Source of the DNA: Patagioenas fasciata
Taxonomy: Eukaryota
Direction of reading: 5' to 3'
Assembly: GCF_037038585.1 (NCBI RefSeq)
Contig: NC_092556.1
Coordinates: forward strand, 450,619-514,618
DNA: 64,000 nt
The notes under the pieces are model-generated. The model saw nothing but the letters and a program-made list of their open reading frames with translations. It did not search any database and was not told the origin of the DNA. Position numbers and translations under genes: made by a program. Below are positions 4,930 to 63,840 of the stretch, in pieces (positions within the stretch are counted from its first letter, which is position 1; each line of letters starts with the position of its first letter).

Positions 4930-6440
4930 GCAGCACCTGCAATGGGGGCGTGTGGGGACCTATAGGATCCATAGGGGGTCCCTATAGAATCCATGGGGTG
5001 CTCTGGGGATCCCTGTTGGATCCACGGGGGGGTCTGGGGGTCCCTATAGGATCCATAGGGGGTCCCTATAGAATCCATGGGGTGCTCTGGGGATCCCTGT
5101 TGGATCCACAGGGGGGTCTGGGGGTCCCTATAGGATCCATAGGGGTTCCCTATAGAATCCATGGGGTGCTCTGGGGATCCCTATTGGATCCGCAGGGGGC
5201 TCTGGGGGGGTCCTATAGGATCCATAGGGGGTCCCCATATGATCCATAGGGGGCTCTGGGGGTCCCTATAGGATCTACAGGGGGGTCGAGTGGTCCCTAT
5301 AGGATCCATAGGAGGTCCCTATAAGATCCATAGTGGGGTCTTGGGGTCCCTATAGGATCCATAGGAGGTCCCTATAGGATCCATAGTGGGGTCTGGGGGT
5401 CCCTGTAGGATCTATGGGGGCTCTGGGGATCCATATAAGATCCATAGGGAGTCCCTATAGGATCCATAGTGGGGCCTGGGCGTCCCCATAGGATCCATAG
5501 GGGGGTCCCTATAGGATCTATGGGGGGCGGAATTTGATCCGTATAGGATCCATAGGGGGTCCCTATAGGATCCATAGGGGTGTCTGGGGGGGTCCCTATA
5601 AGGTCCATAGGGGATCAGTTTGATCCCTATAAGATCCATGGGGGAGTCTGGGGGTCCCTATAGAATCTATAGGGGAGTCTGGGGATCCCTATAGGACCCA
5701 TGGTGAGGGGGGTTGATCCCTATAGGATCCATAGGGGGTCCCTATAGGATCCATACGTCTATCTGGGGGTCCCTATTGGATCCATAGGGGGGTTTGGGGG
5801 TCCCTATAAGATCCATAGGGGATCCCTATAAGATGCATAAGGGGTTGGGGGCTCCCTATAGGATCTATAAGGGGTCCCTATAGGGCCCATAGGGGGTCAG
5901 GGGGTCCCTATTGAGTCCATAGGGGGGCTGGGGGTCCCTATAAGATCCATAGTGGGTCCCTATAGAATCCATAGGGTGCTCTGGGGGGCCCTATAGGATC
6001 CATAGGGGGTCCCTATAAGACCCATAGGGGTGCAGTTTGATCCCTATCGGATCCATAGGGGGGTGTGGGGGTCCCCATAGGATCCATAGGGGGTCTGGGG
6101 ATCCCTATAGGATCCATGGGCGGTCCCTATAGGATCCATAGGGGGTCCTTATAGGACCCACAGGGGTGCAGTTTGATCCCTATCGGATCCATAGGGGGGT
6201 CTGGGGGTCCCTATTGGACCCATAGGGGGTGTGGGGGTCCCTATAAGACCCATAGTGGGTCCCTATAGAATCCATGGGGTGCTCTGGGGGTCCCTATAGG
6301 ATCCATAGGGGGTCCCTATAAGACCCACAGGGGTGCAGTTTGATCCCTATCGGATCCATAGGGGGGCTGGGGGTCCCCATAGGATCCATAGGGGGGCTGG
6401 GGGTCCCCATAGGATCCATAGGGTGCCCGTAGGCCCCCGG
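4930..6440. repeat. ~22-bp minisatellite GGATCCATAGGGGGTCCCTATA
   Basis: Direct reading. Confidence 0.9.
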
Positions 6441-6649
6441 CTGTCCGTCCGTCCCGCCCGTTACCTCCGTCCGTCCGTCCATGGCGCCTCAGCCGCTTCC
6501 CCCCCCCCCAATCGGGGCCCCTCCCCGGACGCCTGGGTCCATTCCCGGACGCCTGGGTCCCTTCCCGGACGCCTGGGTCCCTTCCCGGACGCCTGGGTCC
6601 CCCAGCCCAGGGAGGCCCCTATGGGGGAAACGGCCCCGAATGGGCCATT

Positions 6650-7250
6650 TTAAGGCGGATTTGGGGCTTCTATAGGGGAAAAACGACTTTAAATCCGCTT
6701 TTCTATAGGGGAAACGCCCTTAATGGGGGGGTTATGCCACATTATCCCTATTTCTATACATTTTATAGCGAAAAACCCCCTAAAATCGCTATTTATCAGT
6801 CAAAAACCCCCTAATTGTGCCGCTTTATAACACCCACACCTTTAAATCCCCTTAATCTATAGGCAACGCGCCCTTAAACGCGTTTACATTCAACCTATAT
6901 ACATTAAACCTTAAGTGTGGCTGCTCTAGGGGGGAAACGCCCTAAATCTGCCCCCAAATGCGAAATAGCGCCCTAAATCCCGCCCTATTCACACAATGTA
7001 TACATTAATTAGGTGTTTTTGCGCTTTTTTATGTGCTATATACGTTTAAACTTCTGTTTCTATAAGGGAAACGCCCTTGAGTTGGTCCCTGAAGGGGCTG
7101 TGGGCAAAACTTGGTTCCCTATAGCGAAAATACCCTTAAATTGGCCCGGCTATAGGTCCAGGGCGTAGCTCCCCCCCTTATATGTGTGGTTTTATACATA
7201 AATAGTTTAATACTTACGTAATATTTTATATATATAGAGAAGTTTAGGCG
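6650..7250. promoter_or_regulatory. AT-richer unique island with ~8 dispersed copies of a 21-bp motif CTATAGGGGAAACGCCCTTAA, ending in a TATATATATAGAG tract
   Basis: Motif copies near 6670, 6705, 6755, 6850, 6925, 6965, 7060 and 7120, spaced 40-100 bp apart. This is the only AT-rich stretch in the window, and it lies directly upstream of the CpG promoter. Confidence 0.35.
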
Positions 7251-7699: not shown

Positions 7700-8320
7700 T
7701 GAGGACCCGGGGGGGGGGTTTGGGGGGTTTTTGGGGGGTTTTGGGGCCGTTGGTGGCGGTTGGGGGGGGGGGGGAAGATGGCGGTGTGAGGGAAAAAGGG
7801 TTAAAAAATGGGGTTTTTTTGGGGAAAAATGGGGGGTTTGAGGGAAAAATGGGCGGTTTGTGAGGGAAAGTGGGGGTCTATGAGGAAAAGTGGGGGTTTT
7901 TGGGGGGGAAAATGGGGGTTTTGGGGGGGGAAATGGGGGTGGGGAAATGGCGCGGGAAAAGGGGCTTTTGGGGGGGAAAAAAGGGGGGGTTGGGGGCTTT
8001 GTGAGGGGGAAAGGGGGGGTTGGGGGGAAAAAGGGGGAAGTTTGGGGGGAAAAGTGGATTTTGAGGGGAAAAAGGGGGTTTTGGGGTTTGTGGGGGAAAA
8101 TGGGAGGAGAAAAGGGGATTTGGGGGGGAAAAGGGGGATTTGGGGGCGGTTTTGAGGAGCAAAATGAGGGGAAATGGGAGGGGTTTAGGTGGAAAATGAG
8201 GTTTTTTAGGCAGAAAAAATTGGTGTTTCTAAGGGCAAAAAGTGAGGTTTTAGGTAAAAAGTTTGGGGGTTTGGGCCACGAAAAATTCGAGGTTTTGGGG
8301 GCGAAAAAGTGAGATTTTGG
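7700..8320. repeat. G-rich minisatellite (GGGGGAAAAGGGGGTTTTG family)
   Basis: Direct reading. Confidence 0.85.
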
Positions 8321-11219: not shown

Positions 11220-13200
11220 AGGGGGTATGGGAGAAATTGGGGTTCAGGGAGGAACCAAGGGGTGAAATGGGGGGGATTTGGGGGTTCAGGGAGGAACCAA
11301 GGGGTGAAATGGGGGGGATTGGGGGTTCAGGGAGGAACCAAGGGGTGAAATGGGGGGGATTGGGGGTTCAGGGAGGAACCAAGGGGTGAAATGGGGGGGA
11401 TTTGGGGGTTCAGGGAGGAACCAAGGGGCGAAATGGGGGGGATTTGGGGGTTCAGGGAGGAACCAAGGGGTGAAATGGGGGGGATTGGGGGTTCAGGGAG
11501 GAACCAAGGGGTGAAATGGGGGGGATTGGGGGTTCAGGGAGGAACCAAGGGGCGAAATGGGGGGGATTTGGGGGTTCAGGGAGGAACCAAGGGGTGAAAT
11601 GGGGGGGATTGGGGGTTCAGGGAGGAACCAAGGGGTGAAATGGGGGGGATTTGGGGTTCAGGGAGGAACCAAGGGGTGAAATGGGGGGGATTTGGGGGTT
11701 CAGGGAGGAACCAAGGGGTGAAATGGGGGGGATTGGGGGTTCAGGGAGGAACCAAGGGGTGAAATGGGGGGGATTTGGGGGTTCAGGGAGGAACCAAGGG
11801 GTGAAATGGGGGGGATTGGGGGTTCAGGGAGGAACCAAGGGGTGAAATGGGGGGGATTGGGGGGTTCAGGGAGGAACCAAGGGGTGAAATGGGGGGATTG
11901 GGGGGTTCAGGGAGGAACCAAGGGGTGAAATGGGGGGATTGGGGGGTTCAGGGAGGAACCAAGGGGTGAAATGGGGGGGATTGGGGGTTCAGGGAGGAAC
12001 CAAGGGGTGAAATGGGGGGATTGGGAGGTTCAGGGAGGAACCAAGGGGTGAAATGGGGGGGATTTGGGGGTTCAGGGAGGAACCAAGGGGTGAAATGGGG
12101 GGGATTGGGGGTTCAGGGAGGAACCAAGGGGTGAAATGGGGGGATTGGGGGGTTCAGGGAGGAACCAAGGGGTGAAATGGGGGGGATTTGGGGGTTCAGG
12201 GAGGAACCAAGGGGTGAAATGGGGGGGATTTGGGGGTTCAGGGAGGAACCAAGGGGTGAAATGGGGGGGATTTGGGGGTTCAGGGAGGAACCAAGGGGTG
12301 AAATGGGGGGGATTGGGGGTTCAGGGAGGAACCAAGGGGTGAAATGGGGGGGATTGGGGGTTCAGGGAGGAACCAAGGGGTGAAATGGGGGGGATTTGGG
12401 GGTTCAGGGAGGAACCAAGGGGTGAAATGGGGGGGATTTGGGGGTTCAGGGAGGAACCAAGGGGTGAAATGGGGGGGATTGGGGGTTCAGGGAGGAACCA
12501 AGGGGTGAAATGGGGGGATTGGGGGGTTCAGGGAGGAACCAAGGGGTGAAATGGGGGGGATTTGGGGGTTCAGGGAGGAACCAAGGGGTGAAATGGGGGG
12601 GATTGGGGGTTCAGGGAGGAACCAAGGGGTGAAATGGGGGGGATTTGGGGGTTCAGGGAGGAACCAAGGGGTGAAATGGGGGGGATTGGGGGTTCAGGGA
12701 GGAACCAAGGGGCGAAATGGGGGGGATTGGGGGTTCAGGGAGGAACCAAGAGGTAAATGGGGGTGATTTGGGGGTTCAGGGAGGAACCAAGGGGTGAAAT
12801 GGGGGGTTGGATGGGGGGGTTTTGGGGGTTCAGGGAGGAACCAAGGGATGAATGGGGTGTTCCAGGGGGGTGGGTAAAGGGGGTTTTGGGGATTCAGGGA
12901 GGAACCACGGGGCGAGCGGGGGGTTGATGGATTTGGGGGTTCACTAAGGGGGTTTGGGGGTTCAGGGAGGAACCAAGGGGTGAAATGGGGGGGGTTGGTG
13001 GATTTGGGGGTTCACTAAGGGGGTTTGGGGGTTCAGGGAGGAACCAAGGGGCGAAATGGGGGGTTCCAGGGGTTTGGATAAAGGGGGCTTTGGGGGTTCA
13101 GGGAGGAACCATGGGGTGAAATGGGGGTGGGCTGTGGGGGTTCAGGGAGGAACCAAGGGCTGAAATGGGGGCTTCAGGGAGGAACCACGGGCCGAGCGGG
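11220..13200. repeat. 41-bp satellite GGGGTTCAGGGAGGAACCAAGGGGTGAAATGGGGGGGATT, about 45 units
   Basis: Direct reading. It is highly homogeneous. Confidence 0.95.
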
Positions 13201-13599: not shown

Positions 13600-14760
13600 C
13601 CCGAAACCGCACGAAATTAGCCCAAAACCGACCCGAAATGGGCCCGGACCGCCTTAAAATGCTCCCACATGGCCCCAGAATGGGCCCAGACGGCCTTAAA
13701 ATGAGCCCAGACCACCTTAAAATGCTCCCACGTGGCCCCAAGATGGGCCCAGACCACCTTAAAATGCTCCCAGATGACCCCAGAATGTGCCCAAATGACC
13801 CCAAAATGGGCCCAGAGGGCCTTAAAATGAGCCCAGACCACCTTAAAATGCTCCCACATGGCCCCAAGATGGGCCCAGACCACCTTAAAATGGGCCCAAA
13901 TGACCCCAGAATGGGCCCAGACCGCCTTAAAATGCTCCCGCATGGCCCCAAAATGGGTGCAAATGACCCCAAAATGGGCCCAGATGGCCTTAAAATGCTC
14001 CCATATGTGCCCAGACCACCTTAAAATGCTCCCACGTGGCCCCAAAATGGGCGCAAATGACCCTAAAATGGGCCCAGACCACCTTAAAATGCTCCCACAT
14101 GGCCCCAAAATGGGCCCAGACCACCTTAAAATGCTCCCAGATTAACCCAGAATGTGCCCAAATGACCCCAAAATGGGCCCAGATGGCCCCAAATTCCCCC
14201 CAACACCCCAAAACTCCACTTGGATCCTCCCAACTTCTCCTTCATCCCCATCTCCCGCACCCCCAAACTTCCCTTTTTCCCCCAAAAACCCCCTCTAGAC
14301 CCCCCAAGCACCCCCAAAACCCCTTCTAGACCCCCCAAAACCCCCTCTAGACCCCCCATGCACCCCCAAAACCCCCTCTAGACCCCCCATGCACCCCCAA
14401 AACCCCCTCTAGACCCCCCATGCACCCCCAAAACCCCCTCTAGACCCCCCCAGCACCCCCAAAACCCCCTCTAGACCCCCCCATGCACCCCCAAAACCCC
14501 CTCTAGACCCCCCCCATGCACCCCCAAAACCCCCTCTAGACCCCCCATGCACCCCCAAAACCCCCTCTAGACCCCCCCATGCACCCCCAAAACCCCCTCT
14601 AGACCCCCCCCATGCACCCCCAAAACCCCCTCTAGACCCCCCATGCACCCCCAAAACCCCCTCTAGACCCCCCCATGCACCCCCAAAACCCCCTCTAGAC
14701 CCCCCATGCACCCCCAAAACCCCCTCTAGACCCCCCAAGCACCCCCAACACCCCAAAAAT
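13600..14760. repeat. Two minisatellites in SRRM2 intron: a ~40-bp CCTTAAAATGCTCCCACATGGCCCCAAGATGGGCCCAGAC unit, then a ~30-bp CCCCAAAACCCCCTCTAGACCCCCCATGCA unit
   Basis: Direct reading. Confidence 0.9.
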
Positions 14761-15006
14761 CCCCCCAAAATCCCCCCGAATTCCCCCTCAACTCCACTTG
14801 GACCCTCCCAACTTCTCCTGCATCCCTGACTCCCGTACCCCCAAAACTCCCCTTTTTGCCCCCAAAACTCCCCTTTTTCCCCCCAAAACCCCCTTTTTCC
14901 TCCCCAACTCTCCCCCTTTTACCCCCCAACCCCCCTCCAATCCCCCCCCCAGCCCCCCAAAACCCCCCTTAGCCCCCCAAAAACCCCCTTCTCCCCCCAT
15001 TTCCAG

Positions 15007-15105
15007 GTACACGGAGAGCGAAATCCAGGACAAAGTCTCCACCTTCCGCACGATGCTCTTGGAACGCGACGTGGCCCTGGGGGACCCCGCCGACCCCAAA
15101 CCCGC
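15007..15105 (+). CDS. SRRM2: SRRM2 exon: (G)YTESEIQDKVSTFRTMLLERDVALGDPADPKP
   Basis: Matches human QGYEEQQIQEKVATFRLMLLEKDV. Acceptor ttccag|. Donor GC|gtgagt. The phase continues from the previous exon. Confidence 0.9.
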
Positions 15106-15190
15106 GTGAGTGCCCCCAAAACCCCCCCGAGACCCCCCAAAACCCCCCCTAATTAACCCCCCCCCCCTTAACGAGCTCCCCCCTCGTTAG

Positions 15191-15346
15191 CGTGACGGAA
15201 ACTCATCAGCTGGCCGAAGCTAACGAGAAGAAGAACGAGCGGCTGCGGGCGGCCTTCGGGATCAGCGACAGCTACGTGGACGGGAGCTCCTTCGACCCCG
15301 CGCGCCGCGCCAAAGAGACCCCCCCGGAGCCCCCCGAGCCCCCCAG
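15191..15346 (+). CDS. SRRM2: SRRM2 exon: AVTETHQLAEANEKKNERLRAAFGISDSYVDGSSFDPARRAKETPPEPPEPP
   Basis: Matches human PAVTETHQLAELNEKKNERLRAAFGISDSYVDGSSFDPQRRA. Acceptor cgttag|. Donor CCCCAG|gtaccg. Confidence 0.9.
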
Positions 15347-15439
15347 GTACCGACCCGGGGGTCCCCAAAACCCCCCGGTGCCCCCCAAAAACACCCCGGG
15401 CCCCCCAAGTTTTCCTGAGCCCCCCAAGTCCCCCTAAGT

Positions 15440-16330
15440 ACCATCAAACCCTTCTTAGTGTCTCAAACCCCTCATAGGGTTATACTGGGGTACAGGGGGG
15501 TCCCCAAACCCCATAGGGTTATACTGGGGTACAAGGGGGTCCCTGAAACCCCCCAGTGCCCCCCAAAAACACCCCAGGCCCCCCAAGTTTTCCTGAGCCC
15601 CCCAAGTCCCCCTAAGTACCATCAAACCCTTCTTAGTGTCTCAAACCCCATAGGGTTATACTGGGGTACAGGGGGGTCCCCAAACCCCATAGGGTTATAC
15701 TGGGGTACAAGGGGGTCCCCGAAACCCCCCTGTGCCCCCCAGAAATACCCCGGGCCCCCCAAGTTTTCCTGAGCCCCCCAAGTCCCCCCAAATCCCCCCC
15801 AAGTCCATCAAGCTCCCCTTAGTGTCTCAACCCCCCCCATAGGGTTATATTGGGGTACAGGGGGGATCCCCACACCCCATAGCGATATATTGGGGTACAG
15901 GGGGGATCCCCACACCCCATAGGTCAATATTGGGGTACAGGGGGGATCCTCAAACCCCATAGGGATATATTGGGGTACAGAGGGATCCCCACACCCCATA
16001 GGGATATATTGGGTACAGGGGGGATCCCCAAACCCCATAGGGATATATTGGGGTACAGAGGGATCCCCACACCCCATAGGGATATATTGGGGTACAGGGG
16101 GGATCCCCAAACCCCATAGGGATATATTGGGGTACAGGGGGATCCCCACACCCCATAGGGATATAATGGGGTCCTCACACCCCGTGGGTCAATATTGGGG
16201 TACAGGGGGATCCCCACACCCCATAGGGATATAATGGGGTACAGGGGGGTCCCCACACCCCATAGGGATATAATGGGGTCCCCACACCCCGTGGGTCAAT
16301 ATTGGGGTCCGGGGGGTCCCCCACACCCCC
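15440..16330. repeat. ~40-bp minisatellite CATAGGGATATATTGGGGTACAGGGGGGATCCCCACACC, plus a ~160-bp segmental tandem duplication (15370-15730)
   Basis: Direct reading. Confidence 0.85.
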
Positions 16331-37599: not shown

Positions 37600-39060
37600 G
37601 GGGGTCCTGGGGGGGTTTTATGGGGTTATTTGTGCTCCTTGACGTATTTTGGGGGGTTTTGGGGGCGTTTTGGGGCTGTTTTGGGCGGATTTGGGGCTCT
37701 GGGTGGGGGTTTGGGGTCCTGAGCCGCGCATGGGCGGGGTTTAGGTGTCCATGGAGGTGCCTGTTTGGGGGTTTTGGGGGGGATTTGGGGGGACTTGGGG
37801 GTCCGGCTGCCCCATGGGGGGTGTTTGGGGGCAGTTTTGGGGGTTTTGGGGGGTTTGGGGGGCTGGGCGCCCCATAGATTCCGTTTTGGGGGGGGGTTGG
37901 GGGGCTGGGGGGGTTGGGGTCCTCAGGGCCCCCATTGGGGCGCATTGGGGGGGTTTGGGTGGCCAAGGAGGTGCCTGTTGGGGGGTTTGGGGGGGATGGG
38001 GGAGGGGAGGGGGGGAGGGGAAGGGACCCAGGCGTCCGGGCCCCACGGGTTTTGCTGACGGGGCAGGAGGCGCTGGGTGTGGGGGGAGGGAGGGACCCAG
38101 GCGTCCGGGCCCCACGCCCCGCCCCGCCCCCCCCCGGGGCACAGGGAGGGGGGGAGGGGGAGGGGGAGGGGGAGGGGGAGGGGGAGGGGGAGGGGGAGGG
38201 GGAGGGGGAGGGGGAGGGGGAGGGGGAGGGGGGGACCCAGGCGTCCGGGCCCCACATGTGGGGCTGATGTGGGGTGAGGGACCCAGGCGTTCGGGCCCCA
38301 TAAGTGACCCCCAACCAAGGGACCCAGGCGTCCGGGCCCCACATGTGGGGGTGACATGAGGTGAAGGACCCAGGCGTTCGGGCCCCACATCTGCCCCATA
38401 AGTGATCCCCAAGGAAGGGACCCAGGCGTTCGGGCCCCATAAGTGACCCCCAACCAAGGGACCCAGGCGTTCGGGCCCCACATCTGCCCCACAAGTGACT
38501 CCGCCCAACCAAGGGACCCAGGCGTCCGGGCCCCACATGTGGGGGTGATGTGGGGTGAGGGACCCAGGCGTTCGGGCCCCACACATGGGGCTGATGACAA
38601 GTGAGGGGACCCAGGCGTTCGGGCCCCACATCTGCCCCATAAGTGAACCTCAACGAAGGGACCCAGGCGTCCGGGCCCCATAAGTGACCCCCCCACCAAG
38701 AGACCCACGCGTCCGGGCCCCACATCTGCCCCATAAGTGAACCCCAAATCCAGGGGACCCAGGCGTCCGGGCCCCATAAGTGACCCCCCCACCAAGGGAC
38801 CCAGGCGTCCGGGCCCCACATCTGCCCCATAAGTGAGCCCCAAATCCAGGGGACCCAGGCGTCCAGGCCCCACATCTGCCCCATAAGTGACTCCGCCCAA
38901 CCAAGGGACCCAGGCGTCCGGGCCCCATAAGTGACCCCCACCGAAGGGACCCAGGTGTCCGGGCCCCATGGCGGGGGTGCCGTGGGGTGAGGACCCAGGC
39001 GTCCGGGCCCCACCCCGCCCCCCCCGCGTGGGCGAACCCGTTGGGCGAGGCCCCCGCCCC
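37600..39060. repeat. Satellite built on GGGACCCAGGCGTCCGGGCCCCA(CATCTGCCCCATAAGTGACC); includes a (GGGGGA)n tract at 38150-38230
   Basis: Direct reading. The same core appears in five other arrays in the window. Confidence 0.9.
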
Positions 39061-39156: not shown

Positions 39157-39241
39157 ATGGGGACCCCCGACCCCCTCCTCCCGCTGCTGCTGCTGCTGCT
39201 GCTCCCGGACCCACGGCGCGCGACCCACGGCTGCGAATCAG
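39157..39241 (+). CDS. Serine protease exon 1, signal peptide: MGTPDPLLPLLLLLLLPDPRRATHGCES(G)
   Basis: ATG with a hydrophobic poly-Leu core. Donor AATCAG|gtgggg, phase 1. It lies in the same frame as listed ORF 38968..39594. Confidence 0.7.
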
Positions 39242-39244
39242 GTG

Positions 39245-40020
39245 GGGCCCGGACGCCTGGGTCCCTCTGGGGGTCATGGGGGTCACTTATGGGGCCCGGA
39301 CGCCTGGGTCCCTATAAGGGGGTCATGGGGGTCACTTATGGGGCCCGGACGCCTGGGTCCCTCTGGGGGGTCACTTGTGGGGCCCGGACGCCTGGGTCCC
39401 TCTGGGGGTCACTTGTGGGGCCCGGACGCCTGGGTCCCTATAAGGGGGTCATGGGGGGGATGTGGGGCCCGGACGCCTGGGTCCCTATAAGGGGGTCATG
39501 GGGGTCACTTATGGGGCCCGGATGCCTGGGTCCCTCTGAGGTTTGGGGGTCACTTATGGGGCCCGGACGCCTGGGTCCCCTGGGGTTGGGGTGAGCTATG
39601 GGGTCACTTATGGGGCCCGGACGCCTGGGTCCCCTGGGGTTGGGGTGAGCTATGGGGGTCACTTGTGGGGCCCGGACGCCTGGGTCCCCTGGGGTTGGGG
39701 GTGAGCTATGGGGTCACTTGTGGGGCCCGGACGCCTGGGTCCCCTGGGGTTGGGGGTGAGCTATGGGGTCACTTGTGGGGCCCGGACGCCTGGGTCCCCT
39801 GGGGTTGGGGGTGAGCTATGGGGTCACTTGTGGGGCCCGGACGCCTGGGTCCCCTGGGGTTGGGGGTGAGCTATGGGGTCACTTGTGGGGCCCGGACGCC
39901 TGGGTCCCCTGGGGTTGGGGGTGAGCTATGGGGTCACTTATGGGGCCCGGACGCCTGGGTCCCCTGGGGTTGGGGGTGAGCTATGGGGTCACTTGTGGGG
40001 CCCGGACGCCTGGGTCCCTG
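39245..40020. repeat. ~60-bp satellite GGGGCCCGGACGCCTGGGTCCCCTGGGGTTGGGGGTGAGCTATGGGGTCACTTGTG
   Basis: Direct reading. Confidence 0.9.
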
Positions 40021-40038: not shown

Positions 40039-40071
40039 GTTCCCCGGGGCCGCTGACGAGGTCCAAGTTCA
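40039..40071 (+). CDS. Candidate 33-nt micro-exon of the protease: (G)SPGPLTRSKF
   Basis: Acceptor ccctgcag|. Donor TTCA|gtgagt. Its length is a multiple of 3, so the reading frame is preserved whether or not it is included. Confidence 0.45.
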
Positions 40072-40079
40072 GTGAGTGG

Positions 40080-41290
40080 GGGATGGGGACCCCAATGTCC
40101 CTGCGATGTCGTTAATTACCCCACTAATTAATTACCCCACTAATTACCCCATTGATTACCCCACTAATTACCCCATTGATTACCCCATTGATTTACCCAT
40201 TAACCCATTAATTACCCCCATTCCCCCACTAATTACCCCCATTAACCCCATTGATCCCATTGATCCCATTACCCCATTAATTACCCCATTACCCCATTAA
40301 TTACCCCCATTGTCCCAATGTCCCCATTGATCCCATTACCCCATTAATTACCCCATTACCCAGTTAATTACCCCCTTGTCCCCATTGTCCCAATGTCCCC
40401 ATTGTCCCCATTGTCCCCAATGTCCCCATTGATCCCATTGATCCCATGACCTCATTAATTACCCCATTAATTACCCCATTACCCCATTAATTATCCCATA
40501 ACCCCCATTACCCCCATTATCCCATTACCCCATTGTCCCATTGTCCCCACTGTCCCCACTGTCCCCATTGTCCCCGTTATCCCCACTAATTATCCCCATT
40601 ACCCCATTAATTACCCCCATTGTCCCATTGCCCCCATCGCTCCCATTGATCCCCATTGTCCTCAGTGTCCCCATTGTCCCCATTGTCCTTCATTGTCCCC
40701 ATTGTCCCCATTGATCCCCATTGTCCCCATTGTCCCCCATTGTCCCCCATTGTCCCCCATTACCCCCATTGCCCCCATTGATCCCCATTGTCCCCAATGT
40801 CCCCATTGCCCCCATGACCCCCATCACCCCCAATGTCCCCATCACCCCCATTGTCCCCATTGCCCCCAATGCCCCCATTGCCCCCATTGCCCCCATTGTC
40901 CCCATTGTCCCCATTACCCCCATTGCCCCCATTGCCCCCATTGCCCCCAATGCCCCCATTGCCCCCATTGCCCCCATTGTCCCCATTGTCCCCATTACCC
41001 CCATTGCCCCCATTGCCCCCATTGCCCCCATTGCCCCATTACCCCCATTGCCCCCATTGCCCCCATTGCCCCCATTGCCCCATTGTCCCCATTGCCCCAT
41101 TGCCCCATTGCCCCATTACCCCCATTGTCCCCAATGTCCCCATCACCCCCATTGCCCCCATCACCCCCATCGCCCCCATTGCCCCCATTGCTCCCATTGC
41201 CCCCATGACCCCCATGTACCCATCACCCCCATTGCCCCCAATGCCCCCATAGCCCCCACTGTCCCCATCGCCCCCATCACCCCCATCGCC
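40080..41290. repeat. (TAATTACCCCA)n changing into (CCCCATTGCCC)n minisatellite
   Basis: Direct reading. Confidence 0.9.
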
Positions 41291-41313
41291 CCCGCTGTCC
41301 CCGCTGTCCCCAG

Positions 41314-41529
41314 GCTGCGGGCGCCCCCTGGCGGGGCTGTCGCGCAACGTGGGCGGCGAGGACGCGGGGGCGGGGCGGTGGCCCTGGCAGGGGTCCCTGC
41401 CCCCATTGCCCCCATTGTCCCCTCTGTCCCCATTGTCCCCAGGCTGCGGGCGCCCCCTGGCGGGGCTGTCGCGCAACGTGGGCGGTGAGGACGCGGGGGA
41501 GGGGCGGTGGCCCTGGCAGGGGTCCCTGC
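41314..41529 (+). other. Two tandem pseudo-copies (41314-41400 and 41443-41529) of the first 87 nt of protease exon 3 (acceptor + [19 protein letters not shown](A/E)GRWPWQGSL), each truncated at TCCCTGC| into the CCCCATTG satellite
   Basis: The sequence is identical to the real exon (41599-41685) apart from two substitutions. Each copy keeps the ccccag acceptor but has no donor. Confidence 0.8.
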
Positions 41530-41598
41530 CCCCATTGTCCCCATTGTCCCCATTGCCCCCATTGTCCCCAATGTCCCCTCTGTCCCCGCTGTCCCCAG

Positions 41599-41764
41599 GC
41601 TGCGGGCGCCCCCTGGCGGGGCTGTCGCGCAACGTGGGCGGTGAGGACGCGGGGGAGGGGCGGTGGCCCTGGCAGGGGTCCCTGCAGCGCCGCGGCCGCC
41701 ACGTCTGCGGGGCCTCGCTGGTGGCGCCCGCCTGGGTGCTCACGGCCGCCCACTGCTTCCAGAC
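41599..41764 (+). CDS. Serine protease exon 3: (S)[54 protein letters not shown](T), containing the catalytic His
   Basis: Matches testisin/PRSS21 [54 protein letters not shown]. Acceptor ccccag|GCTGCG. Donor CAGAC|gtgaga. Confidence 0.85.
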
Positions 41765-41799
41765 GTGAGAGCGGGGGGGGGGGCATGGGGATGGGGGGG

Positions 41800-43325
41800 T
41801 CACATGGGGGGGGTCACATGACGGGGGGTGGTTATGGGGCTGGGGGGGGCAGATGGGGCTGAGGGGTGGGGGTCACATGGGGCTGGGGGGGTCACATGGG
41901 GCTGGGGGGCGTGGTTATGGGGCTGGCGGGTGGGGGTCCCATGGGGCTGGGGGGGTCACATGGGGCTGGGGGTGGGGTCCCATGGGGCTGGGGGGGTCCC
42001 ATGGGGCTGGGGGGGTTGTGGGGTGGGGGGCTATGGGGCTGGAAGGGGGTTGTGCGGGTAAGGGGGATCACATGGGGCTGGGGTGACCCCATCGCCCCCC
42101 ATTGCCCCCATTGCCCCCATTGCCCCATTGTCCCCATTGCCCCCATTGTCCCCATTGCCCCCATTGCCCCCATTGCCCCAAATGTCCCCATTGCCCCCAT
42201 TGCCCCCATTGTCCCCATTGCCCCCATTGCCCCCATTGCCCCATTGTCCCCATTGCCCCATTGCCCCATTGCCCCCATTGCCCCATTGCCCCCATTACCC
42301 CCATTGCCCCATTGCCCCCATTGCCCCCATTGCCCCCATTGCCCCATTGTCCCCATTGTCCCATTGCCCCCATTGCCCCCATTGCCCCATTGTCCCCATT
42401 GCCCCCATTGCCCCATTGCCCCCATTGCCCCCATTGCCCCATTGCCCCCATTGCCCCCCATTGCCCCATTGCCCCCATTGCCCCCATTGCCCCATTGTCC
42501 CCATTGCCCCATTGCCCCATTGCCCCCATTGCCCCATTGCCCCCATTACCCCCATTGCCCCATTGCCCCCATTGCCCCCATTGCCCCCATTGCCCCCATT
42601 GCCCCATTGCCCCCATTGCCCCATTGTCCCCATTGCCCCCAATGTCCCCATTGCCCCCATTGCCCCCATTGTCCCCATTGCCCCCATTGCCCCCATTGAC
42701 CCCCATTGCCCCCATTGCCCCCATTGCCCCCATCGCCCCCATTGTCCCCATTGCCCCCATTGCCCCCATTGACCCCCATTGCCCCCATCGCCCCCATTGT
42801 CCCCATTGCCCCCATTGCCCCCAATGCCCCATTGCCCCATTACCCCCATTACCCCCATTGCCCCATTGCCCCCATTGCCCCCATTGCCCCATTGCCCCCA
42901 TTGCCCCCATTACCCCCATTACCCCCAATGTCCCCATTGCCCCCATCGCCCCCATTGCCCCCATTGCCTCATTGCCCCCATTGTCCCCATTGTCCCCATT
43001 ACCCCCATTGCCCCATTGCCCCCATTGTCCCCATTGCCCCCATTGTCCCCATTGCCCCCATTGCCCCCATTGCCCCCATTACCCCCATTGCCCCCATTGC
43101 CCCCATTACCCCCATTGCCCCCATTGCCCCCATTGCCCCCATTACCCCCATTACCCCCATTGTCCCCAATGTCCCCATTACCCCCAATGCCCCCATTACC
43201 CCCACCGCCCCCATTACCCCCACCGCCCCCATTACCCCCAATGCCCCCATTACCCCCACCGCCCCCATTGCCCCCATTACCCCCATCCCCCCCATCCCCC
43301 CCATCCCCCCCATCCCCCCCATCGC
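41800..43325. repeat. GGGGCTGGGGGGGTCACATGG-type array, then a long (CCCCATTGCCC)n minisatellite
   Basis: Direct reading. It generates the spurious ORFs 42102..43643 and 42068..42964 (minus strand), among others. Confidence 0.9.
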
Positions 43326-43333
43326 CCCCACAG

Positions 43334-43605
43334 GGACCGCGACCCCCGCTCGTACTCGGTGCTGCTGGGCGCCCCGGAGCTGTCGGGCCCGCCGGGGGTG
43401 GGCGTGGCCATCCCGCTGGGGCGGGTCCTGCCCCACCCCTCGTACGCGGGCGAGGCCACCAGCGGGGACATCGCGCTGGCCCAGCTGGCCCGGCCCGTCC
43501 CCCTCTCGGCCGCGGTGCTGCCCGTCTGCCTGCCCGGGCCGCGCCTCCGCTTCCCGCCCGGCACCCCCTGCGTGGCCACCGGCTGGGGGGACATCGCCGA
43601 GGGAG
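43334..43605 (+). CDS. Serine protease exon 4: DRDPRSYSVLLGAPELSGPPGVGVAIPLGRVLPHPSYAGEATSGDIALAQLARPVPLSAAVLPVCLPGPRLRFPPGTPCVATGWGDIAEG, containing the catalytic Asp (DIAL)
   Basis: Matches the testisin region RYLGNSPYDIALVKLSAPV...CWVTGWGYIKEDE. Acceptor cccacag|GGACC. Donor GGGAG|gtcagg. Confidence 0.85.
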
Positions 43606-45834: not shown

Positions 45835-46004
45835 AGGACCTCCCGTCGCCGCGGCGGCTGCAGCAGCTGGAGGTGCCGCTGTTGGCGCAGCAGACGTGCC
45901 AGCGCCTCTACCGCACCGACATGGGGCGCGCGCGGCCCCCGCGGCCCATCCAGCCCGACATGCTCTGCGCCGGCTACGCCGACGGCCGCAAGGACACCTG
46001 CAAG
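45835..46004 (+). CDS. Serine protease exon 5: (E)DLPSPRRLQQLEVPLLAQQTCQRLYRTDMGRARPPRPIQPDMLCAGYADGRKDTCK
   Basis: Matches testisin ALPSPHTLQEVQVAIINNSMCNHLF...DMVCAGNAQGGKDACF. Acceptor ccccgcag|. Donor TGCAAG|gtaccc. Confidence 0.85.
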
Positions 46005-49648: not shown

Positions 49649-50047
<399 letters not shown>

Positions 50048-51179: not shown

Positions 51180-54100
51180 TTTTTGGGGTTGTTGGGTTGG
51201 GGGGAATCTATGGGGCTGGGGGTCTATGGGGCTGGGGGTCTATGGGGCTGGGGGGCCTATGGGGCTGGGGGGATCTATGGGGCTGGGGGGCCTATGGGGG
51301 CTTCTATGGGGCTGGGGGGGTCTCTGGGGGTTTCTATGGGGCTGGGGGGATCTATGGGGGCTTCTATGGGGCTGGGGGGTCTATGGGGCTGGGGGGATTC
51401 TATGGGGCAGAGGAGGATTCTATGGGGCTGGGGGCGTCTATGGGGGCTTCTATGGGGCTGGGGGGTCTATGGGGCAGAGAAGGATTCTATGGGGCTGGGG
51501 GGGTCTATGGGGGTTTCTATGGGGCGGGGGGGTCTATGGGGGTTTCTATGGGGCTGGGGGGGATTCTATGGGGCTGGAGGGGACCTATGGGGCTGGGGGG
51601 TCTATGGGGGTTTCTATGGGGCTGGGGGGTCTATGGGGCAGAGGGGGATTCTATGGGGCTGGGGGTTTCTATGGGGCAGAGGGGGATTCTATGGGGCTGG
51701 GTGGTCTATGGGGGTTTCTATGGGGCTGGGGGAGATCTGTGGGGCTGAGGGGGATTCTATGGGGCTGGGGGGTCTCTGTGGGTTTCTATGGGGGTCAGAC
51801 CTATGGGGCAGGTGGGTGGGGCAGCGCTATGGGTCCGGCCGGGTCCCCGCCCCACACGTCCCCTCTGCCCCACAACCCCCCCCAGCCCCACGGCCGGAGC
51901 CTTCGCATCAACGAGGAGGAGGAGCCGCTTATGGGGCAGGACCCATAAGTGACCCCCAGACCCATAACTGACCCATAAGTGATTCCCAGACCCACATCTG
52001 CCCCCCAAGTGAACCCCAATGCCGAGGGACCCAGGCGTCCGGGCCCCACATCTGCCCCATAAGTGCCACCAAACCCCAGCGGACCCAGGCGTCCGGGCCC
52101 CACATCTGCCCCACACTTTGACTTTGGGGTCCAGTTTTATTGATGGTTGGGGGGCAATGGGGGGGTCTGTGGGTCACAGAGGAATCTATGGGTCACAGGG
52201 GGGAGATCTATGGGGCCCATCAAGGATCTATGGGTCACAGAGTAGATCTATGGGTCCCGGTGTGGTCTATGGGTCTGGGGGAGATCTATGGGGTGCAGGG
52301 CAAATCTGTGGGTCTGGGGGGATCTATGGGTCCCATAAGGAATCTATGGGGCCCAGGGCAAATCTATGGGGCCCAGGGTGAATCTGTGGGTCCCATAAAG
52401 AATCTATGGGTCTCAGGACAAGTCTATGGGTCCCAGAGCAAATCTGTGGGTCCCATAAGGAATCTGTGGGTCCCAGGACAAAACTATGGGTCACGGAGTA
52501 AATCTATGGTTCTCAGGACAAATCTATGGGGCCCATGGTGGGGATCTATGGGTCCCATAAAGAATCTATGGGTCCCAGGCCAAATCTATGGGTCCCAGAG
52601 AAAACCTATGGGTCCCATAAGGAATCTGTGGGTCACAGGACAGGTCTATGGGTCTCTATGGTCCCTATGGTCTCTATGGGTCCCTATGGGGCCCTATGGG
52701 TCTCTATGGGTCTCTATGGGTCTGTGTGGGTCTCTATGGGTCCCCATGGGTCTCTATGGGTCCTTATGGGTCTCTATGGGTCCCTATGGGTCTCTATGGT
52801 CTCTATGGGTCCCTATGGTCGCTATGGGTCTCTATGGGTCCCTATGGTCTCTATGGGTCCCTATGGGTCCCTATGGGTCCCTATGGGTTTCTATGGTCTC
52901 TATGGTCCCTATGGGTCTCTATGGTCTCTATGGGTCCCTATGGGTCCCTATGGGTCCCCATGGGGGTCTATGGGTCCTTATGGGTCTCTATGGGTCCGTG
53001 TGGGTCTCTATGGGTCTCTATGGTCTCTATGGTCTCTATGGGTCCCTATGGGTCCCTATGGGTCTCTATGGTCCCTATGGGTCTCTATGGGTCCGTGTGG
53101 GTCTCTATGGGTCTCTATGGTCCCTATGGTCTCTATGGGGCCCTATGGGTCTCTATGGGTCTCTATGGGTCTGTGTGGTCCCTATGGGTCTGTGTGGGTC
53201 TCTATGGGTCCCCATGGGTCTCTATGGGTCTGTGTGGTCTCTATGGGTCCCTATGGTCTCTATGGGTCCCTATGGGTCTCTATGGGTCTGTGTGGTCTCT
53301 ATGGGTCCCTATGGGTCTCTATGGGTCTCTATGGGTCCCTATGGGTCTCTATGGTCTCTATGGGTCTCTATGGTCTCTATGGGTCCCTATGGGTCCCTAT
53401 GGGTCTCTATGGGTCCCTATGGGTCTCTATGGGTCCGTGTGGGTCCCCATGGGGCGTCCGTGGGTCCGGGGTCCGTGGGTCCGATCTCAGCTGCGTCAGC
53501 GATTTTTTGGGGGCCAAAGCCCATAAGTTAGGGGGGGGGGAGGGGCAGCGGCTCCCGGGGCCTGCGGGGAGAATTTGGGGTGAAAAACGGGGGATTTGGG
53601 AAAAATGGGGTTGGGGGAAAATGGGGTTTTGGGGGGAAAAAAGGGGATTTTGGGGGTGAAAAATGGGGATTTTGGGGGACAAAAAATAGCGGGGGTTTTG
53701 GGGAAAATGGGGATTTTTGGGGGAAAAACGGGGGATTTTGGGTTAAAAATGGGGGTTTTTGGGGGTGAAAAATGGGGATTTTGGGGGGGGAATATTGGGG
53801 GTTTTTGGGGTGAAAAAAGGGGATTTTGGGGAAAAAATTGGGGTTTTGGGGGGGGAAATTTTGGGGTTTTTTGGGGTGAAAAATGGGGATTTTTGAGGGG
53901 AAAATTGGGGTTTTTTGGGGGAGAAAAATTGGGATTTTTGAGGGGGAAATATTGGGGGTTTTTTTGGGGTGAAAAAATGGGGATTTGGGGAAAAAAATGG
54001 GGGTTTTGAGGGGAAAAATTTTGGGACTTTTTTGGGTGAAAAAAGGGGATTTTTGAGGGAAAAATTGGGGTTTTTTTGGGGTGAAAAAAGGGGGTTTTGG

Positions 54101-62250: not shown

Positions 62251-62399
62251 GGGGCTGGGGGGAGGGCGTCAGCCGTGGGGCCCGGACGCCTGGGTCCCCC
62301 CCTCATCCCGCCCCACGGGATCCCATTGGGGGCGTTGGGGGGGTCTGACCCATAAGTTGGGGGGCCCAGAAGTACAGTGGTTCCTGCCCCATAAGTTGG

Positions 62400-63840
62400 G
62401 GGTCTGGGAAGCCCATAACTGAGGGACCCAGGCGTCCGGGCCCCACATCTCCCCCCCAAATGCCACCTAAGGGAGGGACCCAGGCGTCCGGGCCCCACAT
62501 CTCCCCCCCAAATGCCACCTGAAGCAGGGACCCAGGCGTCCGGGCCCCACATCTCCCCCCCAAATGCCACCTGAAGCAGGGACCCAGGCGTCCGGGCCCC
62601 ACATCTCCCCCCCAAATGTCACCTAAGGAAGGGACCCAGGCGTCCGGGAGGGACCCAGGCGTCCGGGCCCCACATCTCCCCCCACCCAAATGCCACCTAA
62701 GGGAGGGACCCAGGCGTCCGGGCCCCACATCTCCCCCCCAAATGCCCCCTAAGGGAGGGACCCAGGCGTCCGGGCCCCACATCTCCCCCCCAGATGCCAC
62801 CTGAAGCAGGGACCCAGGTGTCCGGGAGGGACCCAGGCGTCCGGGCCCCACATCTCCCCCCCCAAATGCCCCCTAAGGGAGGGACCCAGGCGTCCGGGCC
62901 CCACATCTCCCCCCCCAAATGCCACCTAAGGGAGGGACCCAGGCGTTCGGGCCCCACATCTCCCCCCCAAATGCCACCTAAGGGAGGGACCCAGGCGTCC
63001 GGGCCCCACATCTCCCCCCCCAAATGCCCCCTAAGGGAGGGACCCAGGCGTCCGGGCCCCACATCTCCCCCCCCAAATGCCCCCTAAGGGAGGGACCCAG
63101 GCGTCCGGGCCCCACATCTCCCCCCCCAAATGTCACCTAAGGGAGGGACCCAGGCGTCCGGGAGGGACCCAGGCATCCGGGCCCCACATCTCCCCCCCAA
63201 ATGCCCCCTAAGGGAGGGACCCAGGCGTCCGGGCCCCCCATCTCCCCCCCCAAATGCCCCCTAAGGGAGGGACCCAGGTGTCCGGGCCCCACATCTCCCC
63301 CCCCAAATGCCCCCTAAGGGAGGGACCCAGGCGTCCGGGCCCCACATCTCCCCCCCAAATGCCCCCTAAGGGAGGGACCCAGGCGTCCGGGCCCCACATC
63401 TCCCCCCCAGATGTCACCTAAGGGAGGGACCCAGGCGTCTGGGCCCCACATCTCCCCCCCAAATGCCCCCTAAGGGAGGGACCCAGGCGTCCGGGCCCCA
63501 CATCTCCCCCCCAAATGTCACCTAAGGGAGGGACCCAGGCGTCCGGGCCCCACATCTCCCCCCCCAAATGCCACCTAAGGGAGGGACCCAGGCGTCCGGG
63601 CCCCACATCTCCCCCCCCAAATGTCACCTAAGGGAGGGACCCAGGCGTCCGGGCCCCACATCTCTCCCCCAAATGCCCCCTAAGGGAGGGACCCAGGCGT
63701 CCGGGCCCCACATCTCCCCCCCAAATGCCCCCTAAGGGAGGGACCCAGGCGTCCGGGCCCCACATCTCCCCCCCCAAATGCCCCCTAAGGGAGGGACCCA
63801 GGCGTCCGGGAGGGACCCAGGCGTCCGGGCCCCACATCTC
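62400..63840. repeat. 60-bp satellite GGGACCCAGGCGTCCGGGCCCCACATCTCCCCCCCAAATGCCCCCTAAGGGA, about 24 units
   Basis: Direct reading. It shares the GGGACCCAGGCGTCCGGG core with the arrays at 1925-3950, 6520-6610, 37990-39060, 39245-40020 and 52020-52100. Confidence 0.95.

Follow-up and report, generated by a model that had tools for sequence, protein, structure and literature searches.

The window analysed here, a stretch of 64,000 nucleotides (nt) from the band-tailed pigeon, Patagioenas fasciata (NCBI RefSeq assembly GCF_037038585.1, contig NC_092556.1, positions 450,619 to 514,618 of the forward strand), carries on its plus strand a six-exon gene for a serine protease 33-like protein. The element under study is a partial duplication of the third exon of this gene: the ccccag splice acceptor and the first 87 nt of exon 3 occur three times in tandem, interrupting the minisatellite of intron 2, and only the third occurrence continues into a complete exon. 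The parts of the duplicated region are the following, with positions counted along the window and a bar in a motif marking a splice or cleavage boundary.

41272..41313, plus strand: 42 nt derived from the satellite before copy 1, ending in a decoy acceptor ccccag (pyrimidine fraction 0.82).
41314..41400, plus strand: copy 1, exon 3 nt 1-87, a truncated pseudo-exon with C at 41357 (the ancestral state, without a GT) and C at 41371.
41401..41442, plus strand: spacer 1, 42 nt of satellite ending in a decoy acceptor ccccag.
41443..41529, plus strand: copy 2, exon 3 nt 1-87, the same as the real exon, with a cryptic donor GCG|GTGAGG whose GT lies at 41485.
41530..41598, plus strand: spacer 2, 69 nt of satellite equal to spacer 1 plus three 9-mers, holding the ATG at 41571 and ending in the authentic acceptor.
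41599..41764, plus strand: authentic exon 3, with the activation site SR|NVGG, the catalytic His in TAAHC and the donor GAC|GTGAGA; its first 87 nt (41599-41685) are the source of the copies.

The triple arrangement, including the acceptor, had been proposed from the letters alone and was recovered by direct reading of 40900-42300, by repeat finders and by a three-way alignment. The repeated block reads ...tgtccccag|GCTGCGGGCGCCCCCTGGCGGGGCTGTCGCGCAACGTGGGCGG(C/T)GAGGACGCGGGGG(C/A)GGGGCGGTGGCCCTGGCAGGGGTCCCTGC and breaks a long (CCCCATTGY)n array three times. Tandem Repeats Finder (TRF) gives periods of 129 and 156 nt over 41242-41685, and a repeat-family finder returns a three-copy family, D3, with the same two spacings. 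In the alignment the block and its acceptor are invariant but for two columns, which are the two substitutions already seen by the sequence-only reading: at exon offset 44 copy 1 has C (41357) where copies 2 and 3 have T (41486 and 41642), and at offset 58 copy 1 has C (41371) where copies 2 and 3 have A (41500 and 41656). Copies 2 and 3 show 0 differences over their 87 nt. The copies stay identical upstream of the exon as well, across ccccag and some 11-25 nt of intronic sequence. Downstream, copies 1 and 2 end in TCCCTGC and pass at the same junction into CCCCATTG satellite; copy 3 continues after TCCCTGC with AGCGCCGCGG (AGCGCC...) and runs on to its donor after 41764. The first two copies had been described as truncated and devoid of a donor. 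The break at TCCCTGC and the absence of the authentic donor are confirmed, but copy 2 does contain the GT site GCG|GTGAGG at 41485.

When the exon was used as a blastn-short query, the intronic copies appeared as 87-nt matches over exon positions 1-87, with scores of 157 and 172 bits, and base-shuffled introns yielded no match of 20 nt or more with the same query and the settings of a published screen that is described below. A chance repeat or an artefact of low complexity is ruled out by these figures. Mutually exclusive or alternative full exons were also considered and ruled out: the first two copies end at nt 87, short of the catalytic His, and have no real donor.

The other exons of the host gene are listed below; several of them are compared with the locus (L001) and the protein (P0002) of the ortholog in the Nicobar pigeon, Caloenas nicobarica.

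39157..39241, plus strand: exon 1, with the ATG, a Leu-rich signal peptide and the donor CAG|GTGGGG; it matches the N-terminus of P0002 and has a blastn match to the Caloenas locus.
40039..40071, plus strand: exon 2, 33 nt, encoding GSPGPLTRSKF, phase 1 to phase 1; P0002 has GSPGQLTRSKIS, and identity to L001:8453-8485 is 94%.
43334..43605, plus strand: exon 4, with the catalytic Asp in DIAL.
45835..46004, plus strand: exon 5, placed by reading of the splice junctions.
49649..50047, plus strand: exon 6, with the catalytic Ser in GDSGGP, a repetitive stalk, a hydrophobic C-terminus and the stop.

The spliced six-exon protein is 100% identical, over the shared part, to the NCBI protein P0001, annotated as "serine protease 33-like [Patagioenas fasciata]". 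Six-frame inspection places the motifs of the catalytic triad on the plus strand at 41742 (TAAHC, exon 3), 43467 (DIAL, exon 4) and 49649 (GDSGGP, exon 6), and PF00089 (Peptidase S1) is precomputed for P0001 and for all the orthologs. The real coding exon thus stays intact, in that the spliced model yields an uninterrupted S1 protease; moreover, the position of the authentic exon 3 acceptor is conserved in four other birds. The label "exon 3" given by the sequence-only reading is right, because the Caloenas ortholog bears out exons 1 and 2: the N-terminus of P0002 is MGTPDPLL...THGCDTGSPGQLTRSKISCGRP, and both model exons align to the Caloenas locus. The sequence-only reading was also right in taking the DNA for that of a bird. 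The NCBI model P0001 starts instead at the ATG at 41571, within the satellite just upstream of copy 3, and therefore has no exons 1 and 2 and no signal peptide. This wrong start is probably an annotation casualty of the repeats.

The activation site (41626-41640) is SR|NVGG and departs from the canonical R|(I/V)VGG of S1 proteases. An Asn N-terminus would be unusual in an active S1 protease. The Asn of R|NVGG is conserved in ostrich, emu, chicken, pigeons, cuckoos and parrots (orthologs P0002, P0018, P0020, P0023, P0024, P0028, P0030, P0038 and P0082), and the sole passerine sequence retrieved for this site, Chamaea P0048, has R|AVGG. By this comparison of orthologs, R|NVGG is a lineage feature and no defect of the pigeon copy. 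As a separate observation, the stalk of exon 6 (about 49850-49960) is a coding tandem repeat of GENGAETG and GQNGAGMG units between the protease domain and the hydrophobic C-terminus, and it diverges strongly from the Caloenas C-terminus.

The gene lies in a sequence context dominated by repeats. The window as a whole is 62% GC and 83% tandem repeat. TRF covers 94-97% of each of introns 1-5 (97% of intron 2, 94% of intron 3) and 0% of the exons, except that coverage reaches 52% in exon 3, where it falls on the duplicated part, and 40% in exon 6, where it falls on the stalk. The two introns that flank exon 3 contain the following.

40232..41311, plus strand: intron 2 minisatellite (CCCCATTGY)n, about 110 units, almost AG-free, with 27 G-quadruplex (G4) motifs on the opposite strand.
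41765..43333, plus strand: intron 3, a G-rich 19-mer array followed by CCCCATTGC satellite (42087-43330).

Intron 2 is 1527 nt long in the one Patagioenas assembly and 1247 nt long in Caloenas. The CCCCATTGC 9-mer family fills introns 2 and 3 in plus orientation; in introns 4 and 5 it is inverted and takes up parts of each (the start of intron 4 is filled). It is also dispersed over the 64-kb window, in plus orientation at 4-5, 18-21, 40-44 and 60-62 kb and inverted at 11-13, 43-50 and 56-60 kb, and the same satellite, as CCCCATTGT, stands directly upstream of the orthologous exon 3 in Caloenas. A purely local origin of the repeats of each intron does not fit this dispersal. Another family adjoins exon 1 directly: the GT of the intron 1 donor opens a 25-nt motif, GTGGGGCCCGGACGCCTGGGTCCCT (39242-39266), which is the core of the intron 1 minisatellite and occurs in dozens of copies at 38022-39014 (inverted), 39290-40019, 52025-52103 and 62275-63835, that is, in both orientations upstream of the gene and again about 12-24 kb downstream.

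The P. fasciata record is 2.1 Mb long, and the records that hold the orthologs measure 0.77 (Caloenas and Phaenicophaeus), 0.84, 1.06, 3.3, 4.8 and 5.7 Mb. Together with the GC content, the repeats and the G4 motifs, these sizes point indirectly to an avian dot chromosome, whose euchromatic part has such a profile according to PMC12954441 and 10.1101/2025.10.17.683159.

A process that produces structures of this kind has recently been described in the dot chromosomes of chicken under the name of exon stuttering, a subset of "sequence stuttering" in which one side of an exon, together with its donor or acceptor, is repeated in tandem along the neighbouring intron (PMC12954441). The screen accepted blastn-short matches of 20 nt or more in the proximal intron whose bit score exceeded a shuffled-intron ceiling of 42.1, and it found 115 genes and 236 introns, 190 of the latter on dot chromosomes, which makes the association with these chromosomes strong without being absolute. 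Extensive variation of intron length among individuals of a species is a further mark of the process. The copied exon parts were 20-187 nt long (median 36) and present in 1-44 copies (median 4), and more than 90% of the source segments lay at most 1 nt from the exon border (PMC12954441). Exon stuttering was said to create "potential alternatively spliced transcripts" (Hron et al., Genome Biol Evol 2026, PMC12954441; bioRxiv 2025); the study covered chicken only and contained no transcript evidence (PMC12954441).

At the level of sequence the pigeon locus shows every feature on which that screen relies. Two extra copies stand as direct tandem copies in the neighbouring intron 2; their source is at the exon border (exon positions 1-87) and includes the acceptor; both bit scores, 157 and 172, exceed the published ceiling; the host intron is covered with repeats; and the coding exon is intact, with 100% identity to P0001 over the shared part. 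Our reading, to which we give a probability of roughly 85%, is that this is real, lineage-specific exon stuttering, in which the minisatellite of intron 2 drew the exon 3 acceptor and 87 nt of coding sequence into its own tandem amplification.

The junction suggests how this may have happened. TCCCTGC|CCCCATTG reads like an ordinary boundary between satellite units (...ATTGC|CCCCATTG...), and the GTCCCTGC of the exon resembles the GTCCCCATTGC of the satellite, with a 3-nt microhomology, TGC. The same junction in copies 1 and 2 points to one founding junction, later amplified as a unit. In the proposed mechanism a single misalignment, by replication slippage, template switching or unequal exchange, would have paired the exon's GTCCCTGC with the satellite's GTCCCCATTGC through TGC, and the resulting unit would then have been amplified by unequal exchange. 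Caloenas has GTCGCTGC at the site of the junction; the resemblance between exon and satellite appears greater in Patagioenas than in Caloenas, and its bearing on the mechanism is only suggestive.

The age of the copies was approached through nine birds: Patagioenas, Caloenas, Cuculus, Guaruba, Dromaius, Phaenicophaeus, Struthio, Taeniopygia and Gallus. Exon 3 is single-copy in Caloenas, Cuculus, Guaruba, Dromaius, Phaenicophaeus, Struthio and Taeniopygia, so that among the eight other birds only chicken has anything extra. The chicken copy arose independently, because its breakpoint is at about offset 94, it breaks into a different satellite, CCCCATAGAGA, and it is 97.8% identical to chicken's own exon. 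As exon 3 is single-copy elsewhere and the chicken copy is independent, the pigeon duplication is lineage-specific. The comparison with orthologous loci in other birds, which the sequence-only reading had recommended, therefore agrees with its view of a recent duplication linked to the surrounding 9-mer minisatellite.

A duplication younger than the split from the Nicobar pigeon is also supported by the substitutions. The real pigeon segment differs from Caloenas at 6 of 87 positions (93% identity); five of these six differences are common to all three pigeon copies, and the copies are at most two substitutions apart. The two substitutions do not support an absolute date. They do bear on the order of events. 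Offset 44 is C in Caloenas, Cuculus and Dromaius, which makes the C of copy 1 ancestral and the T of copies 2 and 3 derived (the change is synonymous), and a derived CCCCTCTGT unit in the spacers is likewise common to copies 2 and 3. The earlier claim of a recent duplication is thus upheld as to its age, but it has to be amended as to number, for at least two successive events, and not one, are indicated. In the history that we propose, both would have occurred in the Patagioenas lineage, the first giving rise to copy 1 and the second, after the change from C to T, to copy 2; later slippage of three 9-mers would have added 27 nt to one spacer (69 against 42 nt).

Copies of exon edges are not confined to the pigeon. 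The orthologous gene is affected in five of the nine birds, pigeon included, at four different exon edges, as listed here.

Caloenas, L001 (Caloenas nicobarica CM069743.1) 11276-11977, real exon 4 at 12037: some 10 extra copies, in intron 3, of the exon 4 acceptor with the 14 nt that follow it (39-nt probe), in an 83/166-nt higher-order repeat.
Guaruba, L003 (Guaruba guarouba CM098568.1) 5827-5976 and 6318-6466, real exon 4 end at about 5621: 2 extra copies of the GT donor with about 90 nt of exon 4 sequence before it (the 3' end), 97-99% identity over about 150 nt.
Gallus, L007 (Gallus gallus MU179263.1) 6725-6859, real exon 3 at 8059-8229: 1 extra copy of the acceptor of exon 3 with about 94 nt of the exon, identical at 97.8% over 136 nt.
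Taeniopygia, L008 (Taeniopygia guttata CM109805.1) 14110-15514: 3' end of exon 5 plus the donor, in at least 8 copies that recur every 160 nt or so.

No copies of exon edges were found in the orthologous gene of Cuculus, Dromaius, Phaenicophaeus and Struthio. The exon part copied in Caloenas, at 14 nt, is too short (below 20 nt) to pass the published screen. The Guaruba copies include about 57 nt of a (TAATGGGGTTA)n satellite and are a donor-side mirror of the pigeon case. In zebra finch the 445-amino-acid protein P0068 contains GDMVCAGDPRGGGDTCK three times just before GDSGGP, so that two stuttered copies are carried in frame. Five birds out of nine and four different edges indicate a continuing propensity of the locus rather than rare accidents. 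The breakpoints of the chicken and pigeon copies in exon 3 are about 4 nt apart in homologous coordinates, a distance expected by chance in about 5% of cases, and this near coincidence is suggestive only. Elsewhere on the chicken scaffold (L007 17681-25267) many weak to moderate tblastn matches to the exon 4/5 part of the chicken protein, at 48-82% identity, are spread over about 8 kb; these could represent stuttering on a larger scale or a tandem array of gene fragments.

Two other explanations were weighed against recent, lineage-specific stuttering. The first explanation is an old duplication, whose copies would have been kept alike by gene conversion with the selected real exon and would have been secondarily lost in Caloenas. 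The exon-derived parts differ at 0-2 of 87 positions, against 4-7 of 42 in the satellite just upstream (41272-41313, 41401-41442 and 41557-41598; Fisher p = 0.005-0.01). Simple duplication with neutral drift leaves this contrast between exon and satellite unexplained, and either fast turnover of the 9-mers or gene conversion has to be added. Offset 58 is ambiguous too: it is A in Caloenas, and C, the state of copy 1, in the more distant Cuculus, Dromaius and Guaruba. The presence in chicken of a copy of the same exon edge could be read in the same direction, but that copy is independent by its breakpoint, satellite and identity; moreover, seven other species have no extra copy of exon 3, and fast turnover of the 9-mers alone can account for the more diverged spacers. 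We therefore consider an old duplication unlikely.

The second explanation is an assembly artefact, in which a single exon edge was over-expanded in a repeat-rich region prone to G4 and i-motif structures while the bird itself has one copy; this is the error that the sequence-only reading had named as fatal to its proposal. The region is in fact 97% tandem repeat with dense G4 motifs, and a preprint on non-B DNA in bird genomes reports that such dot-chromosome sequence is hard for PacBio sequencing (10.1101/2025.10.17.683159). A database-wide protein search with the 150-amino-acid read-through peptide matched only a single exon 3 part (30-50% of the query) and no junction, so that no independent sequence with the junctions came from it. 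Against this, the whole structure spans about 450 nt, far below the length of long reads. The copies can be told apart by the two substitutions of copy 1 and by spacers of 42 and 69 nt with differing sequence, and an ancestral state in copy 1 is not what stutter of an assembler would be expected to leave. Four assemblies of other species, independent of this one, contain structures of the same kind at other edges of exons, and in chicken raw nanopore reads served to check how the repeats of the PHF8 example are arranged (PMC12954441). An artefact is for these reasons very unlikely, though it is the chief doubt that is left.

On the reading of recent exon stuttering, the next matter is what the copies may do to splicing. 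The three acceptors share their last 11 nt and have pyrimidine fractions of 0.82-0.86. Only three AG dinucleotides occur from the exon 2 donor to 41312, and each of the three acceptors supplies the first AG downstream of a pyrimidine tract that runs for about 50-80 nt with no AG in it. Being near-identical and so placed, the three sites look equally usable, and competition of the upstream acceptors with the real exon 3 acceptor, as the sequence-only reading supposed, is a reasonable prediction. The site GCG|GTGAGG is present in copy 2 (GT at 41485) and in the real exon (GT at 41641); copy 1 has GC there. Its match to the donor consensus is 6/9, as good as that of four of the five real donors of the gene.

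The reading frame is open over 41253-41765, a 458-amino-acid read-through product is possible, and the units of 129, 156 and 42 nt are all multiples of 3. Read-through from 41314 is predicted to add 285 nt, read-through from 41443 to add 156 nt, and a micro-exon at 41443-41484 to add 42 nt. Every use of a decoy would hence be in frame and would lengthen only the propeptide, upstream of the last SR|NVGG site, and would leave the mature enzyme as it is. That the frame is kept follows almost of itself, because the period is 9 nt, the satellite units are stop-free in three frames and 87 = 3 x 29; the in-frame property was accordingly rejected as a sign of selection.

These features nonetheless bring up a third explanation, selected functional exonisation, in which the upstream copies would make isoforms with a longer propeptide and two extra activation-like sites. 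It draws on the open frame, on decoy acceptors as good as the real one, on the consensus-grade donor of copy 2, and on annotated models elsewhere that take stuttered or satellite sequence as coding (zebra finch P0068 and Eudromia P0030). However, the prior chance of staying in frame, given the 9-nt period, the stop-free units and the length of 87 nt, is at least 1 in 3; the copies are absent from the other birds examined and so are not conserved; extra unpaired Cys residues would enter the propeptide; and the annotated models with such sequence are more simply annotation errors. Functional exonisation under selection is accordingly highly improbable. The decoy copies are most probably neutral or mildly deleterious by-products of stuttering with no function of their own, which may persist because every use of them would keep the frame, the final activation site and the catalytic domain. 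A bolder proposal, which we regard as doubtful, combines a sequence-specified fragile or template-switch site in exon 3, which the nearby breakpoints of chicken and pigeon could mark and which would make stuttering non-random along the gene, with decoy acceptors that are spliced into in-frame zymogens whose propeptide is longer by 14-95 residues.

What is new here is modest: an instance of exon stuttering outside chicken, the same gene struck independently in five of nine birds, and a pigeon case in which all predicted splice uses are in frame. Exon stuttering was described in 2025-26 in chicken only. The pigeon locus offers a compact and datable example from another order of birds, with two successive events, a clean microhomology junction, separable ancestral and derived states, and few possible splice outcomes. 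If the decoys are spliced, stuttering would be a route from satellite-driven instability to new coding repeats in dot-chromosome genes. The protease gene did not turn up among the 115 chicken genes, judging from the supplementary text of Hron et al., where PRSS27, PRSS33, PRSS8, TPSAB1 and "serine protease" do not occur, though the GRCg7b scaffold shows a copy. A literature search on partial exon duplication, minisatellite and splice acceptor returned nothing relevant. There are consequences for annotation as well: the pigeon model loses its signal peptide, the zebra finch model counts stuttered exon copies as coding, and the tinamou model (Eudromia P0030) begins with a long, repetitive N-terminal stretch resembling satellite that has been translated.

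The neighbourhood of the gene helps to place it among known proteases. Directly upstream and head-to-head with it, a homologue of ELOB lies on the minus strand (35873-33537), found as a three-exon tblastn match of 72-89% identity with a human ELOB query. The same position is occupied by a 118-amino-acid ubiquitin-fold gene in Caloenas and by a ubiquitin-fold gene in Dromaius (emu). This conserved synteny supports orthology of the region with the ELOB-PRSS33 neighbourhood. The relevant group of S1 proteases is that of PRSS33, PRSS27 (marapsin) and testisin, at an ELOB-linked locus (16p13.3 in human). The pigeon gene resembles this group in its PF00089 domain, its His/Asp/Ser triad, its six exons, its signal peptide and hydrophobic C-terminus, and in having the ELOB homologue upstream on the opposite strand. 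It is unlike the group in the R|NVGG of the bird orthologs, in place of canonical R|IVGG, and in its minisatellite-filled introns.

Compared with exon stuttering in chicken, the pigeon locus shows the same direct tandem copies of an exon edge with its splice site, an intact exon, a repeat-filled intron, a context rich in GC and G4 motifs, and an apparently recent origin; its copy length of 87 nt and its two extra copies fall within the published ranges. It differs in its host, and its copies are long and few by the standard of those ranges. Moreover, the amplifying 9-mer of the pigeon is not "strictly local": it is shared by introns 2-5, by other parts of the window and by the sequence upstream of exon 3 in Caloenas.

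The locus is also comparable to the decoy exons and pseudo-exons that arise from intragenic duplications of part of an exon, with which it shares near-identical duplicated acceptors upstream of the real one, each with an AG-free pyrimidine tract; the pigeon acceptors would probably compete with one another for a single upstream donor. What sets the pigeon copies apart from many disease-causing partial-exon duplications is that any use of them would be in frame and lie upstream of the zymogen activation site. Finally, the structure is akin to the higher-order repeats of minisatellites, or variable number tandem repeats (VNTRs), which form through unequal exchange or replication slippage, in that head-to-tail units of 129/156 nt are built from a 9-nt period, with microhomology at the junction, differences of whole 9-mers and fast-changing satellite parts. 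Ordinary VNTRs differ from it in one respect: the pigeon unit holds unique coding sequence, 87 nt of it, and a splice acceptor that looks functional.

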